From Promethearchaeota archaeon (GTDB taxonomy: Archaea > Asgardarchaeota > Lokiarchaeia > Sigyniarchaeales > SOKP01): a DNA stretch of 64,000 bases. The notes below the pieces were generated by a model, which saw nothing but the letters and a program-made list of their open reading frames with translations, was not told where the DNA came from and ran no database searches. The position numbers and the translations under genes are program-made. Shown one piece after another: positions 1 to 50,077 of the stretch. The DNA lies in assembly GCA_030599585.1 (NCBI GenBank), contig JAUVNS010000003.1:64001-128000 (forward strand), read 5' to 3'. The first letter of the stretch is position 1, and the number at the start of each line of letters is the position of its first letter.

Positions 1-384
1 AATAGAATAGAAGATTTTTTTAATGTTTTGATATTTCAATGGTTTATATTTGTAGATTCCAGCAAGAGAACCATATATCGCTACGATAAAACACCAATCA
101 ATGTATATTGTATGATAGAATGCGATCTGATAGACGAGTTCCCCTAAGAATCCTGCAAAAAACGCTGGAAGTGGGCCTGATAATACTGAAAAGAAAGCAA
201 GGATCAGTAAAGATACGCTAAAAACAATCGAAAAACTGACAGTTCCTATATAAGGCGAAGAAACAGAACCAAATGATTCTGAAGTGTATAAGTAACTCAT
301 AAAAATAAAGAAGACCGTTATAATTTTCACAAATATCGTTCTTATGAAACTATTTGGTTTGTTTTCGTTAGAATCAATGCTCAT
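1..384 (-). CDS. Membrane protein, ECF-transporter S-component-like (3' end runs off the window)
   Basis: Not in the ORF track. ATG at 384 opens a frame to the window edge: MSIDSNENKPNSFIRTIFVKIITVFFIFMSYL...LLILAFFSVLSGPLPAFFAGFLGELVYQ...IDWCFIVAIYGSLAG. Several hydrophobic helices; the GPxxxFxAGFLG segment resembles ECF S components. Confidence 0.55.
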   Translation of the reverse strand, partial: MSIDSNENKPNSFIRTIFVKIITVFFIFMSYLYTSESFGSVSSPYIGTVSFSIVFSVSLLILAFFSVLSGPLPAFFAGFLGELVYQIAFYHTIYIDWCFIVAIYGSLAGIYKYKPLKYQNIKKIFYSI

Positions 385-430
385 CGCATTAAAAAATTAA
401 TGAAAATAGATAAAATTATCTTTCATAATT

Positions 431-1090
431 TTAAAAAAAAATAACATCAAGCTCTTCAATTAAGCTTTTCTTTGTCATTTCAAAACCCTTACGCAACACT
501 GATACAATTATATTTTTCCCCGTTGGGATATTAAGGATGCTATCATCTTCCTCTACTATTATAATTCCATCGTCGTTATAATCTAATTGGCGCTTAAGAG
601 CCTCGTATGCTTTTTCTTTAGTTTTAAACGCTGCTCTGGATAATTCATCATAACTCTTAACGTCGTCTTTAATGCTCAAAAATAAAACGCACTCCTCAAC
701 TTGAGATATAAAGGATTTTCTCGTGATTTCTCGTAACTTATCGTAATGCTTATGATTTCTTTTACACTGTTTATCAGTTTGGTCATTTTCTAAATAACTC
801 GGAAAATTTTTTTCAATAACCTCATCAAATTTTTCTTGAGTAATCTCACCATTCTGTACTAGAGATTTTGCTGAATCCAATGCGATTGTTATTTGTTTTA
901 ATGTCCCCACGCGAGCGTTATTATCACTCCAAATCTTATAAAATGCTTTTACTATAGGTTTAACCACAAAATTGAACGCTCCGGCATCTAACTCTGTCTC
1001 AATTAGGTCTCGTCCGTAACCTAAACTTAAATCCGTTGTTGAAATCATCTTTTCTTCAACGATCTTATAATTTCTTTCCAAGTAATCCAT
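431..1090 (-). CDS. Hypothetical alpha-helical protein, tandem paralog A
   Basis: 219-aa ORF, colinear over its full length with the adjacent ORF 1177..1833. Confidence 0.85.
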   Translation of the reverse strand: MDYLERNYKIVEEKMISTTDLSLGYGRDLIETELDAGAFNFVVKPIVKAFYKIWSDNNARVGTLKQITIALDSAKSLVQNGEITQEKFDEVIEKNFPSYLENDQTDKQCKRNHKHYDKLREITRKSFISQVEECVLFLSIKDDVKSYDELSRAAFKTKEKAYEALKRQLDYNDDGIIIVEEDDSILNIPTGKNIIVSVLRKGFEMTKKSLIEELDVIFF

Positions 1091-43104: not shown

Positions 43105-43322
43105 TTTTGATTTCCACTCCTCTATTGAAGAATACTAAAGAGCATTCTCTAAGGTATATAACAACATTCATATTTATAATTATTTACACGACATCTTTTT
43201 CATAAAGAGAGAAGGATAATTTTAATAATGGAGAATTAACTCTATTTTAATGTTGTTAAGAAATAATTTGTAATATCTAAAACACATAAAAAAATAAATA
43301 AAAATTAGGCGCAATATTGATT

Positions 43323-44606
43323 ATGGCTAAAAGTGACTACTTTATAGGGGAAGCCCTTTTGGGTGCTGAAGAAAACTTAGCACATATAGATTTAATAATT
43401 GGTTCAAAAGATGGTCCCGTTGGGGTATCTTTTGCAAATGCACTTAGTTCTCCTTCAATAGGCCATGGGGGGCTTTTAGCATGCATAAGACCAAATCTTC
43501 TTACAAAACCAATTAGTCTTGTTATACCTAAAGTTACAGTTTCAAAAATGGAAGAAGCAAATAAGATTTTTGGACCCGCTCAAGCTGCCGTTGCTAAAGC
43601 TATAGCCGATGCAGTAGAAGAAAAGATAATACCCATGAATAAACTGGATGAATGGTTACTTATCGTAAGTGTGTTTATTCACCCCGATGCAAAGGATTAT
43701 AGGAGAATTTATCAATATAACTATAGTGCAACAAAATTAGCGATTAAAAGAGCTTTAAAGAATTACCCACCAATTGAGAAAATTTTCTACGATAAAGATA
43801 GAGCTAAACACCCTGTTGCTGGAATTAGAGTACCAAGGCTTTGGAGACCTCCATATATCCAGGTTGCTTTGGACCACCCAAATATAGACCATCATATGAA
43901 AGTGTTAAAACAATTACCAAAGAGTGACAGAATTATCCTAGAAATTGGAACTCCATTTCTCAAGAAATATGGTATGGAAGCAATAAAAAGAGTAAGGGAA
44001 TTAGCCCCTCAAAAATTTATTGTGGCAGATCTAAAAACCTTGGATGTAGGGAAATTAGAAGTAGATTTTGCTTTTGACGCGACTGCAGATGCTGTTGTTG
44101 CAAGTGGTTTAGCGGCGCCCTCATCTATTGATAAATTCCTTTTAGAGGCTAATCGTTTAGCAATTTATGGGTTTGTTGACACCATGGAAGTAAACGACCC
44201 TATAGCAAAATTGAGTAAACTAAAACAAGTCCCTGATGTTGTTATCTTACATCGAGCAATTGATGTGGAACAAGCTGCTAGTGCAGAATCCTCAGACGCT
44301 GCTCAAAAAGCAAGGTGGGCGTTAATTCCTAAGATAAAAGAATTATATAAAGACGAGAAATTGGCTTCTGGGCGAGATCGCGTTTTAGTTGCTGTTGCAG
44401 GAGGAATTGACCCAAATACTGCCAAATATGCTATAGATATGGGAGCAGATATTTTAATAGTAGGGCGATTTATTACATCATCTAAAGATGTTGAAAATTC
44501 CATGAGGAGATTACTCAATATCATGCCTGGTTATTCTGATATTGACTTAAAGAGAATTCACACGGAAGATGACGATAATTCTGTAAAAAACCCTAAATGG
44601 GATTAA
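43323..44606 (+). CDS. fae-hps: Bifunctional formaldehyde-activating enzyme / 3-hexulose-6-phosphate synthase
   Basis: Fae part: GEALLG...AHIDLIIG, PKVT, FGPAQAAVAKA, VFIHP, NYSATKLAI. Hps part: QVALD, EIGTP, ADLKTLD, LHRAID, VAGGI, IVGR. Confidence 0.94.
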   Translation: MAKSDYFIGEALLGAEENLAHIDLIIGSKDGPVGVSFANALSSPSIGHGGLLACIRPNLLTKPISLVIPKVTVSKMEEANKIFGPAQAAVAKAIADAVEEKIIPMNKLDEWLLIVSVFIHPDAKDYRRIYQYNYSATKLAIKRALKNYPPIEKIFYDKDRAKHPVAGIRVPRLWRPPYIQVALDHPNIDHHMKVLKQLPKSDRIILEIGTPFLKKYGMEAIKRVRELAPQKFIVADLKTLDVGKLEVDFAFDATADAVVASGLAAPSSIDKFLLEANRLAIYGFVDTMEVNDPIAKLSKLKQVPDVVILHRAIDVEQAASAESSDAAQKARWALIPKIKELYKDEKLASGRDRVLVAVAGGIDPNTAKYAIDMGADILIVGRFITSSKDVENSMRRLLNIMPGYSDIDLKRIHTEDDDNSVKNPKWD

Positions 44607-45456: not shown

Positions 45457-47712
45457 TCATTTTATTGGTCGGCTGTTAGCCTGGAATATAGGACCTATAA
45501 ACTGACTATATAGGATCGAAAACGCAGTCTGATTGGACACGACGCTTATCATTTCGCCTTCCTTATCAGTCGCGGGACCGAGTATTACTTCTTCTGCGTC
45601 TCGAGTGAGTGCGAAGAATTCCATAGCGCCGCTCAATTGTCGGAACTGAATGTTTCCCAATCCCATCATTTTGCGTATGATATCCCCGTAAGTTCCCATT
45701 TCGAATCTGGAGGTCAACATGAAGCGCACAGCTTTTTTCTGGTAAGCAAATTCGCTGATAACTTGTAAAATTTCAGGAATAACGTAAGGCATTACGATAA
45801 TTATTGAGGATTTAACTCTATATATAGCGTCTTTAATCGCAGCTACTAACGCATCTCGTCCCACTACCTGCCAAGTTGTAATTTCTTCGATTTCGGGAAT
45901 GGAACTTGCAGCTTTATGAATATCACTTAATGTATTTTCATTTTTTTCTGCAATTTCTGTCGCATCGTCAATTGAGTTCATAAATTGGAGCGTAAAATCC
46001 GCTATTGCGTCTTTAATGTTTTGCGTTGTGTCTCTTGTTGTAGCGGTTAGACTACCTTGAAGTGTTTTTGCATTTTCTTCGTATTTTGATTTATGATCTA
46101 TTAACATTTCACCCAAATTTCGATCCAAGTCAGCTGTCTCATCGCCCCATAGATTTATCTCTTCAGTTATTTTATCGGAAACATTTCTTTTCCCACCGAT
46201 AAATTTATCGTCGAGATCCCTAATCCATTCTTCTTTAATTCTTTTGATATCCGTATCGTACTCATTATAATGTCTTAATGAATCTTCTTTGTGTCTAGTA
46301 ATAGCTTCGTCGTATTGGCGGTTGTGAGTTTTTAGCGAATTCTCTAACGAGTCTTTCAGCTTAGTCGTGGTATCAGAGCAATCTTTTACACCACTTTGTA
46401 AAGTACTGTCGATTTCACCTGACATATCGGTTGCGAGTGTTTCTAATTGCACATTTATTGTTTCTTGCGCCTTATGGTCAAGTTCTGTGGTTTCTGTTAC
46501 GACATTATCGTTCTCTTTCGTCACTACATCAGTTACTTCTGTTTTCAGCAAATCTGTGGTCTCTCTTGTATTTTTAACGTAATCTTCACTAGTTTTTGTA
46601 AAATCAGCTTTCATTGGTTCAGTAAATGTTAAAATGTTCTGAATTGTAGTTTCGTGTCGTGCTTTGTACTTTTTCTTCTTTCCCATCCAGAAAAATCCTT
46701 TCTTGCCCATTTCTGCTGTAAAATCTGTAAACCTATTGGCATGCTCTAGTAGATTATCAATAAGCGTTAGAGTCATACTTTTAAATTCGCTGGTTTGATC
46801 TGTTAATACCCTGTGTCTATCATCAACTGTAGCTTTTAGGTTAGTTTGGAGCGTATCAGTCGTGTTTTTGAGATGGTTCAAATGCTCTTTTAACAAGTTA
46901 GAAATCCTTTCTTTAAGATCCACTACAATTTTATCCATTCGTTCTAAATACTTTTCGAGGATTTGTTCCATTCTTGGTTTAAGATCGTTCGCAATAGTCT
47001 GATGTCTATCTACATGATTATCTAAGTTACTTTTCAATTCTTTTTCTAAATCTTCAATTCTTTTGGAAAAATCAGATAAGAGTTCAGCAATTAAATTAGT
47101 TAAAGTACCTTTTGCTTTATTAACGCTAGATTCATTTTCATTTACTCTGGTATCGCAAATATTTTTGTTATTAGAGTTTAGAGTATCCATAATGGAGTGC
47201 AAATTTTCTTCTAAAGTCTTTGAAGTGTCAGTAAAACGATTTCTCGAGTTATTTATCCTATCTCTTTTATTGTTATTTTTGGTATCCGAGTCTTCAAAAA
47301 ATAGGCTAATTTGATCCTCGACCGCAGTTGCCACTTCGCTGATGCTTTTATCTTGAATCGCTTCTAATTTCTCAAATCGATTTGATTGATCAGCTAATAT
47401 TGAATCTTTAGTCTTCGCAATCTCGTCTCTGAATATTTTTGACTCTCCAATGTAAAGTTCAAAGAAAGGCTCTAATGGAATGTATCTGTCGACAATCCCT
47501 GTTACTTTTTTAAGAAAGTCTTTCTCTACTAACCAATTGGTTATCTCCAGAACAATTTCATATGTTAAATCCGGGTGGTCTTCAGTTAGCGATAAATATA
47601 CTTCAGATGAAGTTGCTCGGGGAACTCTTAGGTATACGATGTACACATTGATTTGTTCTTCAGTGAAACCATATCGAGTGAAAACTTCCTTCGTGAATTC
47701 TTTTAAGCTCAT
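45457..47712 (-). CDS. TrmB-like wHTH + ~520-aa amphipathic helical stalk + TrmB/PLD-like C-terminal domain
   Basis: N-terminus YGFTEEQINVYIVYL...LVEKDFL...RYIPLEP. C-terminus TWQVVGRDALVAAIKDAIYRVKSSIIIVMP...TRDAEEVILG. The intervening region has 11-residue periodicity. Confidence 0.8.
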   Translation of the reverse strand: MSLKEFTKEVFTRYGFTEEQINVYIVYLRVPRATSSEVYLSLTEDHPDLTYEIVLEITNWLVEKDFLKKVTGIVDRYIPLEPFFELYIGESKIFRDEIAKTKDSILADQSNRFEKLEAIQDKSISEVATAVEDQISLFFEDSDTKNNNKRDRINNSRNRFTDTSKTLEENLHSIMDTLNSNNKNICDTRVNENESSVNKAKGTLTNLIAELLSDFSKRIEDLEKELKSNLDNHVDRHQTIANDLKPRMEQILEKYLERMDKIVVDLKERISNLLKEHLNHLKNTTDTLQTNLKATVDDRHRVLTDQTSEFKSMTLTLIDNLLEHANRFTDFTAEMGKKGFFWMGKKKKYKARHETTIQNILTFTEPMKADFTKTSEDYVKNTRETTDLLKTEVTDVVTKENDNVVTETTELDHKAQETINVQLETLATDMSGEIDSTLQSGVKDCSDTTTKLKDSLENSLKTHNRQYDEAITRHKEDSLRHYNEYDTDIKRIKEEWIRDLDDKFIGGKRNVSDKITEEINLWGDETADLDRNLGEMLIDHKSKYEENAKTLQGSLTATTRDTTQNIKDAIADFTLQFMNSIDDATEIAEKNENTLSDIHKAASSIPEIEEITTWQVVGRDALVAAIKDAIYRVKSSIIIVMPYVIPEILQVISEFAYQKKAVRFMLTSRFEMGTYGDIIRKMMGLGNIQFRQLSGAMEFFALTRDAEEVILGPATDKEGEMISVVSNQTAFSILYSQFIGPIFQANSRPIK

Positions 47713-48057
47713 AAGATTTTCTCTATTTTTAGATTTTAAAAATTCTGATTAAAATATAATTAATTGAATTCCTTTTCTTTATTTCTATAATATTCTAATA
47801 TAAAATATGTATAATAATATTTTCAAAATTATTATATTAAAACTTAAGGATTAAGGAGCGTCATTTTTTGAGACTTTAATCTTATTCGTAAAAATAATCG
47901 TACGATAAATTCCTTTTATCAAATCTTATTCTAAAAAACATTCCATATTTGTCAATTCTCAATCTTATTTTCATCATTCAATGGGAGAATGTTATTCCTC
48001 AATCCTTTAAATACCGCTTTTATTTGTATTAATTAAATCAATTTAGTGATAAAAAAA

Positions 48058-48744
48058 ATGAAAAAATTAAGTAAAATTCTCTTAGGCACATTTTTCCTAA
48101 TGATTTTATTTTCGACGATTACTTCGTTCAATGTTGTCGCTGTTGGTAATCCCGACGAAACATTTGAAGTTCCAACTGACACGTACCAAGCACAAATTCA
48201 GGAAGGTGTTGCCACAATGTTTAGATTTAGACAAAGAACACAATTGAGACTTAACGCAAGCGTAAATTTAGATGTAACCTTTGATTGTGATGCGTTAAGG
48301 ATTGGTGATAAAGACTTTGCTGTAGAAATTGAAGGCACTGGAGATCTTCAGATGAATATGACTTGTACGGAAGAACAGGCAGAGTTAGGCTTGTTAAACG
48401 GAAATACTTATCAAATAAGAAATCGTAATCGATACCAATACCAAGAAGGATTTGTCATCTCATTAGAATGCAACGGAACTTTTACACAGGCAAGGTTAAG
48501 CATAAGTGCTACTAGCGAAAATTCAATGGGTCAATGGGCTTATTATGATGAAGCAACAGAAGAATGGGTTAGTGTACCAACAACTGTAGAAAATGGTTAT
48601 TTGACTGCCGAAGTATCTCACTTTTCGACATGGACAGTACTCATACCGGACTACACACTAGCAATTGTTGGGTTTAGTATTGGTGGCGGAGTTGCAGCAT
48701 TAATAATAATCGCTTCAGTGTTCTACATTAAAAAGAGAAAATAA
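48058..48744 (+). CDS. Secreted, C-terminally membrane-anchored surface protein with an HFS motif just before the TM helix
   Basis: Signal peptide MKKLSKILLGTFFLMILF; beta-rich ectodomain; LTAEVSHFSTWTVL; TM helix; KKRK tail. Confidence 0.8.
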   Translation: MKKLSKILLGTFFLMILFSTITSFNVVAVGNPDETFEVPTDTYQAQIQEGVATMFRFRQRTQLRLNASVNLDVTFDCDALRIGDKDFAVEIEGTGDLQMNMTCTEEQAELGLLNGNTYQIRNRNRYQYQEGFVISLECNGTFTQARLSISATSENSMGQWAYYDEATEEWVSVPTTVENGYLTAEVSHFSTWTVLIPDYTLAIVGFSIGGGVAALIIIASVFYIKKRK

Positions 48745-48823: not shown

Positions 48824-50077
48824 ATGCTTACGTTAAAATTAAAGAACAAATCAAAATTATTCAGCATTTTAATTCTTTTATTAATAATCATTAATTTCAA
48901 TATTTTAATTTCTCAAGTTCTATCCAAAAGAACTGAAAATGTTTCAGGATTTTCTACTCAGGATAAGGTCTACCCTAACGAATCTGTGAAATATGTCTTT
49001 TTTAACAACATAATTTTCGATATTTCTACCGATTCTTTTATTGATCTTGACATCCGTTACGATAGTAATATTGAAAATCGTCAAATCTATTTTCTTATCA
49101 ACAATAGCAACCCTATTTTACTTAATATAAGTTCTAAAGTATCAATGCAGAATTTTGGAATGCCTGGAATGCCTCAAGAGCCGAAAAAAGGCGAAACTCA
49201 ATTTCAATATAGATATAACTGCATTCTTCGAATTCAAACTAATACTACAATAGAATCTCTGACAATATATGGCATCAAAAGATCGATATATGGCTTAAAT
49301 CCTAATTCCGAATATTCCTTAGCTTTGTATGAATCCTCACAAGACTCTTGGGAGCTTATTGATACAATCGAGGAACTAAATGAAACGAGTTCAGAATATA
49401 CTTTAGCTGGTTCTGTCTCTGACCTTCAAACAGACACGGACTATTTTATTACTTTTTATGAGGTCGCTAATATCTTCGACAATTGGTTTTTAATGATTAT
49501 TTTAATTGTTGGTGCGATAGGAATTGGTTCAATCGCGATTTTAATTTCAAAAAAAGATTATTTCCAATACTTAAAAACTAGAACCATTCCAATTGAGAAG
49601 GGTGCGCATCGTTTAACCTTAGAAGACGTCTTAGAGAACGAGAATAGGAATAAAATTATTGACTTAATTCTTACAGAACCTGGAATTCATTTTAATGAGT
49701 TATTACGAAAAACTGAAATAGCAGCGGGTAATCTCGTCTGGCACCTCGATATTTTAGAAACTTACAAGGTAGTGGGTAAAAAAAGGATTGGAAATTTCAT
49801 AGCCTATTTTCCCTATTATCAAAAAAATCCTATTTCAAACCTTGATCTTCGATTGAGTAAGAGCAAGTTAACATTAGGCATTCTCGAAATGATCGAGAAA
49901 GAACCAGGTCTTTGGAACAGTGTAATCACAAAACATTTTAAGGTTGACCATAAAACAATTCAATATCATATTAATAAGTTAAAGGATTTAAATCTCATTC
50001 GCTTCAGAAGTGAAGGGAGAAAGAAAAAAATCTTTCCGAATTTAGAATCAGATTATTTTAATAAAAAAGATAAGTAG
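48824..50077 (+). CDS. Membrane-tethered transcriptional regulator (ectodomain + TM + tandem cytoplasmic wHTH)
   Basis: N-terminal hydrophobic helix, ectodomain, TM (WFLMIILIVGAIGIG). wHTH 1: VLENENRNKIIDLILTEPGIHFNELLR...WHLDILE. wHTH 2: EPG...TIQYHINKL. Confidence 0.85.
   Translation: MLTLKLKNKSKLFSILILLLIIINFNILISQVLSKRTENVSGFSTQDKVYPNESVKYVFFNNIIFDISTDSFIDLDIRYDSNIENRQIYFLINNSNPILLNISSKVSMQNFGMPGMPQEPKKGETQFQYRYNCILRIQTNTTIESLTIYGIKRSIYGLNPNSEYSLALYESSQDSWELIDTIEELNETSSEYTLAGSVSDLQTDTDYFITFYEVANIFDNWFLMIILIVGAIGIGSIAILISKKDYFQYLKTRTIPIEKGAHRLTLEDVLENENRNKIIDLILTEPGIHFNELLRKTEIAAGNLVWHLDILETYKVVGKKRIGNFIAYFPYYQKNPISNLDLRLSKSKLTLGILEMIEKEPGLWNSVITKHFKVDHKTIQYHINKLKDLNLIRFRSEGRKKKIFPNLESDYFNKKDK

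Follow-up and report, generated by a model that had tools for sequence, protein, structure and literature searches.

A strongly constrained rod protein of Lokiarchaea with a TrmBL2-type head, a predicted fold-back hendecad stalk and a conserved basic-aromatic apex

The subject of this study is a single gene, here called the rod gene, which lies on the minus strand of a 64,000-nucleotide stretch of DNA (the window: positions 64,001 to 128,000 of the forward strand of contig JAUVNS010000003.1, assembly GCA_030599585.1) from a Promethearchaeota archaeon of the class Lokiarchaeia. The gene encodes a protein of 751 amino acids (aa) in which two globular domains at the chain ends are separated by a very long helical stalk with a short basic and aromatic segment at its middle. 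The features of the gene, in window positions, are as follows, with the evidence for each in brackets.

45457..47712 (-): the rod gene, a complete coding sequence of 751 codons plus stop (open reading frame (ORF), orthologues, and the ratio of non-synonymous to synonymous substitution rates, dN/dS)
47467..47712 (-): residues 1-82, a TrmB/TrmBL2-type winged helix-turn-helix (wHTH) domain with an acidic recognition helix at residues 51-63 (profile, model)
46702..47466 (-): residues 83-337, arm 1 of the stalk, a predicted continuous hendecad helix of 22-residue units (AlphaFold, periodicity)
46669..46704 (-): residues 337-348, KKGFFWMGKKKK, the predicted rod apex, with a non-helical turn at 338-345 (predicted local distance difference test (pLDDT), entropy, composition)
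45904..46677 (-): residues 346-603, arm 2, a predicted hendecad helix returning to the head, net charge about -23 (AlphaFold, periodicity)
45460..45879 (-): residues 612-751, a non-catalytic alpha/beta phospholipase D (PLD)-like domain with neither an HKD motif nor a beta-barrel subdomain (structure match)

The reading frame is well anchored, as the MSLKE start is common to all orthologues and the short plus-strand ORFs that overlap the gene are without support. Among database proteins from metagenome-assembled genomes of Lokiarchaeota/Promethearchaeota, 117 orthologues are exactly 751 aa long, with zero indels down to about 70% identity, while an exhaustive representative search recovered longer orthologues of 755-1050 aa at 36-51% identity. 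Pairwise comparison with orthologous loci gives a dN/dS of 0.04-0.10 in every region of the gene, and the helical arms are constrained like the globular ends (omega ~0.04). Of the members of the window's taxonomic family among 301 sampled genomes of the phylum, 62 of 68 carry an orthologue of full length, as do six of the seven from its sister family, and within the window's family of Lokiarchaea the gene is single-copy, near-universal and of fixed length. The wider superfamily ranges from 601 to 1788 aa, with stalks of ~320 to ~1500 residues. All named relatives in the databases searched are Asgard archaea (Loki-, Hel-, Hod-, Heimdall-, Baldr-, Borr-, Jord- and Atabeyarchaeia), and within everything searched the family is restricted to this group. 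Its proteins are all annotated as hypothetical, and no paper describing the family was found in a literature search.

Taken as a single sequence, the protein gives little away at its ends: the Pfam TrmB model (PF01978) scores 13.5 bits, below its cut-off of 25.6, and the C-terminal end shows only a faint FilR1_middle match. Family profiles searched against the PDB are far more informative, with residues 1-110 matching residues 7-104 of P. furiosus TrmB (E 3.5e-10) and TrmBL2 (E 4.6e-8), and residues 596-751 matching TrmB 95-201 (E 0.007). Because the N- and C-terminal matches abut on TrmB, the site at which the stalk is inserted falls within TrmB helix alpha5, the dimerising helix to which the start of arm 1 corresponds. 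The AlphaFold model of the full 751-aa protein (pLDDT 79.9) agrees at both ends. Residues 3-84 match the wHTH domains of PerR, Fur and BlaI (Z ~12), while residues 612-751 superpose on TrmB 110-242 (2f5t_X: Z 18.1, root-mean-square deviation (rmsd) 1.9 Å over 131 residues; 3qph_A: Z 17.4) and on the whole C-domain of TrmBL2 (5bpi_C: Z 15.8, rmsd 2.6 Å over 136 aa). TrmBL2 and TrmB are also the top Foldseek matches of the C-domain, with further matches to the PLD-fold proteins Nuc, NucT and Zucchini (Z 12-15) and FAM83.

Together, the two chain ends are strongly supported as a TrmBL2-type module, that is, a wHTH domain and a non-catalytic PLD-like domain. Measured against the TrmB family (PF01978 plus PF11495), the protein has the wHTH domain and the PLD-like first effector subdomain, and departs from the family's short linker helix and overall length of ~260-360 aa, with ~520 helical residues lying between its domains. 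A catalytic PLD is ruled out by the absence of the HKD motif: the place of HxK(x)4D reads FFALTRDAEE(V), with neither His nor Lys in position. Five residues, N687, R704, D705, E708 and S726, are nearly invariant across the superfamily and belong to a ligand-type pocket of the PLD-like domain. The sugar-binding beta-barrel with N305 and G320-E326 is absent, since residue 751 aligns to TrmB 242 (as in TrmBL2), and sensing of sugars by the rod protein is unlikely.

Between the two domains, AlphaFold predicts two helices, at residues 83-337 (pLDDT ~75-88) and 346-603, for a total of ~513 helical residues, and the sole break is at 338-345, where pLDDT falls below 50. The hydrophobicity spectrum has a sharp line at 3.667 (11/3) residues. 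In arm 1 its power is 298, compared with a mean of 58 and a maximum of 141 for shuffled sequences; in arm 2 it is 164, and neither arm gives a signal at the heptad value of 3.5. The hendecad phase holds steady within each arm, and its one jump, of ~130 degrees, is at the tip, so the arms are not one continuous helix with one seam. Five of every eleven positions are partly hydrophobic, with Lys and Arg flanking the hydrophobic face and Asp and Glu in the middle of the polar one. The rod has a strongly acidic character, and the protein as a whole carries a net charge of -33. Autocorrelation of the stalk peaks at 22, 44 and 66 residues. In longer orthologues tandem 22-mers can be read directly (G-ARDRF-xETxK in arm 1, LDxxQxxKLDxQIxxF in arm 2), and in the 1050-aa orthologue P0126 both arms have grown by tandem duplication of such units, at residues 151-260 and 717-826. 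Judged from these repeats, the rod is modular, built of facing 22-mer rungs.

The stalk contains only two prolines, P246 and P366. Invariant P246 (nt ~46975-46977) is the sole proline of arm 1 and in hairpin register faces the near-invariant G432 and G441 of arm 2 (nt 46390-46419; 246+441=687), a combination that may form a built-in elbow or kink. P366, likewise invariant, lies 21 residues past the end of the loop at residue 345. The periodicity of the stalk also attracts matches to unrelated families. Pfam Apolipoprotein scores 33.7 bits (E 3.9e-8), below its gathering cut-off of 90, and ApoA-I is matched in the PDB at E ~1e-3; these sub-threshold matches are explained by shared 11/22-mer periodicity. 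Identities as Apolipoprotein, ZorA, SpiroCoCo, ExoVII-L or Baculo_PEP were all rejected, their scores being far below the cut-offs and the matches being ones of periodicity or composition.

The most telling evidence on how the two arms relate comes from orthologues of different length, in which arm lengths were measured between the conserved anchors R95, G344 and W614, in residues:

P0001 (751-aa clade): arm 1 249, arm 2 270
P0122: arm 1 253, arm 2 270
P0121: arm 1 297, arm 2 314
P0125: arm 1 304, arm 2 321
P0123: arm 1 315, arm 2 332
P0124: arm 1 359, arm 2 376
P0126: arm 1 403, arm 2 420

Arm 1 minus arm 2 is -17 in all six distant orthologues (755-1050 aa), and it is -21 in the 751-aa clade because the tip of that clade is four residues shorter. 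Where arm 1 has gained +44, +62, +106 or +150 residues, arm 2 has gained the identical number, and P0125 has lost 11 residues per arm, through deletions at 183-193 and 482-492. The changes also face one another: insertions in arm 1 follow residue 166 and those in arm 2 follow residue 507, 512 or 522, such that the positions of facing insertions add up to 673-688, where a fold at residue 341.5 would give 683. With 3.667 residues per turn, the increments (11, 44 and 62 residues) come close to an integer number of helical turns.

Structure prediction points the same way. Rigid superpositions with an rmsd below 3 Å span model ranges 1..605, 16..607 and 71..751, and because they take in both chain ends, arm 1 must begin, in the model, right beside the point where arm 2 ends. 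Foldseek matches of the stalk are hairpin coiled coils (chemoreceptor, Rad50, Smc5/6). For P0153, a 22%-identical Asgard homologue, the helix is interrupted mainly at 341-351 in a low-confidence model (pLDDT 60), and the symmetry rule predicts 347. Mutual information with average product correction (APC; 135 sequences, effective number 45) places 16 of the 100 top pairs within i+j = 680-695, where ~6-7 are expected, but the pairs reuse few columns and random sums also peak near 693, and the count is given no weight. Nor does a two-copy complex prediction of residues 176-505, with a score of 0.34 where the mark is 0.42, speak for or against self-association. On the evidence of the matched indels, the helix break and the superpositions, antiparallel pairing of the arms is strongly supported and an intramolecular hairpin is its most likely form, in which ~255 residues per arm at 0.15 nm per residue would give a rod of ~38 nm.

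The apex of this predicted hairpin coincides with the most distinctive segment of the chain. The stalk midpoint is residue 343, and KKGFFWMGKKKK is the only 12-residue window of the whole protein with at least five Lys or Arg and at least two aromatic residues, at a net charge of +7. Within it, GFFWMG has a Wimley-White interfacial energy of -4.3 kcal/mol, the most favourable of any hexapeptide of the protein. The tip is also the least variable segment among the 117 orthologues (entropy 0.17, against 0.47-0.63 elsewhere), and at the level of the order it takes the form KRGSAWKALFLGKHK, in which G339, G344 and K347 hardly vary. Families of 20-24% identity show Gly or Pro together with Phe and Lys or Arg at the midpoint predicted by symmetry (GFRKPFP, GVFKKPDP, GRRLFSGKK; SFFGSSG is also listed), and remote homologues carry Pro/Gly-rich loops of 10-20 residues there; in members longer than 1000 aa the predicted midpoint showed no clear motif. 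A transmembrane protein is ruled out, as the best 19-residue Kyte-Doolittle window reaches 1.7 and belongs to the C-domain, and the apolar run at the tip is just four residues long. On physical grounds, binding of the tip to a membrane surface is plausible.

An earlier note on this DNA, made from the sequence alone, had anticipated much of this architecture. Its two TrmB halves (wHTH at ~1-82, PLD-like from ~612) parted by ~520 helical residues, its clear 11-residue periodicity and its antiparallel hairpin rejoining the halves are all borne out, the arms coming to ~255 residues each; its aromatic and polybasic cluster at the midpoint of the stalk proves unique even in the whole protein. Of the checks it proposed, those on sequence and monomer model gave the results it expected: the monomer prediction puts the FFWM turn at the tip and the end domains together, profile searches link both termini to TrmB, and the midpoint motif and arm-length symmetry are conserved in Asgard homologues. 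Its analogy to apolipoproteins and perilipins, in contrast, comes down to periodicity. The structure itself is close to settled, with a head derived from TrmBL2, a hendecad rod that folds back on itself and an apex that is conserved.

What such a protein does is a matter of graded probability. We tentatively favour a reading in which it is an acidic spacer rod whose cationic tip rests on an anionic surface, most likely a membrane, with the TrmBL2-derived head held ~38 nm away. The linker helix of a TrmBL2-type module would have been expanded by tandem 22-residue units into two length-matched hendecad helices, and these would fold back, bringing the globular domains together at one end and leaving the Gly-flanked basic-aromatic turn at the other. 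The cationic (+7) and interfacially hydrophobic (FFW) apex would dock end-on to an anionic surface, most likely the cytoplasmic membrane face, and the acidic rod would stand off from it; this orientation is proposed because the rod is strongly acidic and only the apex is both cationic and interfacially hydrophobic. The head would then sit at a distance set by the invariant length of the rod, which would make the protein a spacer or a tether, and the strict conservation of length suggests that the distance from head to surface matters. The partner of the head might be DNA, contacted by the wing, which is still basic, or else a protein or small ligand bound in the conserved PLD-like pocket.

Several points weigh against this reading. 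Nucleic acid or an acidic protein would be just as possible a ligand for the Lys-rich aromatic patch, and no consistently linked lipid or membrane gene was found in the rod gene contexts compared. The hairpin geometry is itself deduced from the ranges of superpositions on a predicted model, and an antiparallel dimer between two chains would satisfy the same indel rule. In TrmB, alpha5 of one subunit does pair antiparallel with alpha5 of the other (F81/I91', F84/L88'), and the dimer has been called a DNA-binding-domain (DBD) swap (PMC4158304). Moreover, the hydrophobic face, at five of eleven positions, is wider than a two-helix seam needs, which hints at a higher-order assembly outside the favoured model.

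The dimer in question would be an open, domain-swapped antiparallel homodimer in which arm 1 of either chain pairs with arm 2 of the other, a rod of ~78 nm capped at both ends by a composite wHTH/PLD head and carrying its two basic-aromatic patches at the centre. It accommodates the matched indels just as well and has the precedent of the homologous alpha5 helices, but it fits poorly with a conserved Gly at its centre, with the Pro-rich loops of 10-20 residues of remote homologues, with a hydrophobic stripe that rotates by ~130 degrees across the tip, and with a tip whose length differs by four residues between clades; the AlphaFold monomer, too, folds back. We regard it as very unlikely, and weigh the hairpin as a few times as probable as the swapped dimer, or better.

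FilP, Scy and crescentin are bacterial hendecad-rich filament formers that assemble laterally or head-to-tip. A cytoskeletal or scaffold element of this kind, in which the cationic tip of one rod contacts the acidic rod or head of another and bundles or a lattice result, is in keeping with the wide hydrophobic face, with the complementary charges of rod and tip, and with the strong constraint on exposed as well as core positions of the arms (non-core entropy 0.8 among the orthologues, omega ~0.04). Yet nothing points to self-association, filament formers are by general knowledge usually parallel dimers without globular regulator heads, and the conserved ligand-type pocket of the C-domain would be left unexplained, so that a scaffold role appears quite improbable.

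The recognition helix bears on whether the head of the favoured spacer rod would hold DNA. In nearly all studied TrmB members, Tyr50 and Asp51 of this helix are DNA-binding residues (PMC4158304). In the profile alignment, the pair is replaced by L55 and E56 in the rod protein, and the preceding Arg by I53; the recognition helix, LTYEIVLEITNWLVEKD, has four acidic residues and one basic residue (net ~-3), whereas that of TrmB and TrmBL2 is net positive, and residues 1-82 carry a net charge of -5. From its sequence, the DNA-reading helix thus looks decayed. The wing, on the other hand, retains the basic residues K68, K69 and near-invariant R76 (RYIP; KYRP in TrmBL2), and MreA, a TrmB-family member without the Tyr, is nevertheless a DNA-binding regulator (PMC4158304). 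As the contact residues are lost but the wing is basic and MreA binds without the Tyr, DNA binding by the head is possible, though not assured, and we lean slightly towards doubting it. The earlier note's DNA-binding TrmB-like head therefore stands as regards the TrmB-type wHTH fold, and DNA binding itself has become doubtful; its suggestion of lipid sensing finds no support, the effector barrel being absent and the PLD-like domain lacking the HKD motif.

These observations bear on two readings that place DNA at the centre. In one, the DNA-to-membrane link of the earlier note, the wHTH domain would bind chromosomal DNA as TrmBL2 does and the tip would insert into the membrane, giving a link of ~38 nm between nucleoid and envelope. 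The TrmBL2-like head, the retained K68, K69 and R76 of the wing and a tip with the features of a membrane-binding patch speak for such a tether, but the recognition-helix contacts are lost, a point that the example of MreA keeps from being decisive, and head and rod are acidic overall; we consider it unlikely. In the other, the protein would be a chromatin-architectural protein without a membrane role, an elongated analogue of TrmBL2 in which head, tip or both bind DNA and the rods bridge or space DNA or act as roadblocks. Basic-aromatic patches are generally known to bind nucleic acids too, the gene is single-copy, near-universal and housekeeping-like, and the closest solved relative, TrmBL2, is a chromatin protein (PMC4158304). 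Against this, an acidic rod is unfavourable near DNA, the recognition helix has decayed, and no histone, SMC or other chromatin gene was found linked to the rod gene in the contexts compared, and we give this reading a similarly low probability.

A stronger form of the favoured spacer model would be an Asgard-specific molecular ruler or strut, a rigid rod with its tip on the inner membrane face and the nucleoid or a cytoskeletal or other protein partner held ~38 nm away. We think this quite unlikely as a specific proposal; if true, the protein would be a primitive device for spacing membrane from chromatin or cortex in the closest archaeal relatives of eukaryotes, and the paralogous family, with stalks of 320 to ~1500 residues, would amount to rulers of different lengths.

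The genes around the rod gene suggest no function. It is monocistronic, no operon partner was found, and no ATPase gene was seen beside it. Divergent to it lie a signal-peptide protein of ~230 aa at 48046-48744 (+) and a membrane-anchored protein with an HVO_0163-type HTH and a second wHTH at 48824-50077 (+); this pair is kept beside the rod gene in genera g1, g2, g3 and g6, and is not beside it in g4, g7, g8 or order-level relatives. Convergent to its 3' end, at 43317-44606 (+), is a fae-hps fusion (formaldehyde-activating enzyme plus hexulose-phosphate synthase/OMPdecase fold), which is syntenic with the rod gene in several genera and in one order-level relative, L024. This neighbour gives some footing to an ordinary transcription regulator that uses its giant stalk as a sensor, for instance one sequestered at the membrane according to lipid state, and that controls fae-hps or other nearby genes. 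TrmB-family ancestry is in its favour, as members regulate sugar metabolism (PMC4158304), but fae-hps, being convergent, is not co-transcribed, the protein has neither the effector barrel nor the DNA-reading residues, and a fixed 751 aa with constraint along the whole rod would not be expected of a mere sensor linker; we hold this reading to be highly improbable, close to remote.

Two remote Asgard families show a different context. At L025:1339-11162 and L026:1094-9799, a ~755-aa homologue of 21-23% identity is flanked on one side by two radical-SAM genes and a DUF7714 gene (PF24830), and a geranylgeranyl reductase (PF22578) follows on its other side at a distance of one gene; in L025 the divergent neighbour encodes a HEAT-repeat protein. 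This context is a possible lipid link and is not seen in the window.

The source genome carries five more genes with the PLD-like C-domain (L002-L006, on contigs C38, C30, C26, C8 and C52), which encode proteins of 305-743 aa. L004 and L005 also match the wHTH profile of the rod family and have stalks of ~220-240 residues, and a gene at C31:26968-27264 matches the wHTH profile as well. A profile search of the contigs of this genome revealed no member longer than 1000 aa and no ATPase-linked version. These paralogue counts should be read with the quality of the assembly in mind, which comprises 52 contigs and has a reported completeness of 100% and a reported contamination of 8.9%.

To our knowledge, little is known about how Asgard archaea organise the cell interior, and the rod protein is of real interest for Asgard cell biology, being strongly constrained in a whole Lokiarchaeal family, with a function that we infer from sequence and model. 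A small transcription-factor scaffold appears to have become an SMC-like rod that folds back, has a fixed length and bears a putative surface-docking apex, and architectures related to it are spread over the Asgard phylum. Should the tip bind membrane, and the head DNA or a partner protein, Asgard archaea would have in it their first candidate for a defined spacer between membrane and nucleoid or cortex. The matched-indel rule, in turn, offers a sequence-only means to recognise hairpin rods and gauge their length.

Among characterised proteins, TrmBL2 (TK0471 / PF0496; PDB 5bpd, 5box, 5bpi, 5bqt), a chromatin protein of the Thermococcales, has the same domains in the same order, namely a wHTH domain, an amphipathic helix and a PLD-like C-domain without the barrel. 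It differs in its length of 264 aa and its linker helix of ~55 residues, where the rod protein has a predicted ~520-residue hendecad hairpin; the rod protein has also given up the Tyr/Asp contact pair (L55/E56) and added a conserved basic-aromatic apex. TrmB (P. furiosus / Thermococcus litoralis; PDB 3qph, 2f5t) is the best sequence and structure match for both ends, but the rod protein ends where the TrmB N-subdomain ends and has neither the C-terminal beta-barrel nor the sugar-binding residues. With the exchangeable apolipoproteins (ApoA-I/A-IV/E, PF01442), the stalk shares tandem 11/22-mer class-A amphipathic helices with basic flanks and an acidic centre of the polar face; unlike theirs, its 22-mers are not punctuated by proline, and the protein is cytoplasmic, with no signal peptide. 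The resemblance is compositional, not one of descent or family membership.

The closest parallel in overall plan is with SMC, Rad50 and MukB, in which a head is formed from both chain termini, a long intramolecular antiparallel coiled coil projects from it, and the apex is specialised, an intermolecular variant being possible in the rod protein. Foldseek and structure superposition list Rad50, Smc5/6 and the cohesin elbow for its stalk. The rod protein, however, has no ABC ATPase head (none in Pfam or NCBIfam) and no hinge domain, it lacks a CxxC zinc hook, its only cysteines being C186 and C445, and its repeat is a hendecad where theirs is a heptad. SMC, Rad50 and MukB are thus working analogues of the rod protein, not its relatives.

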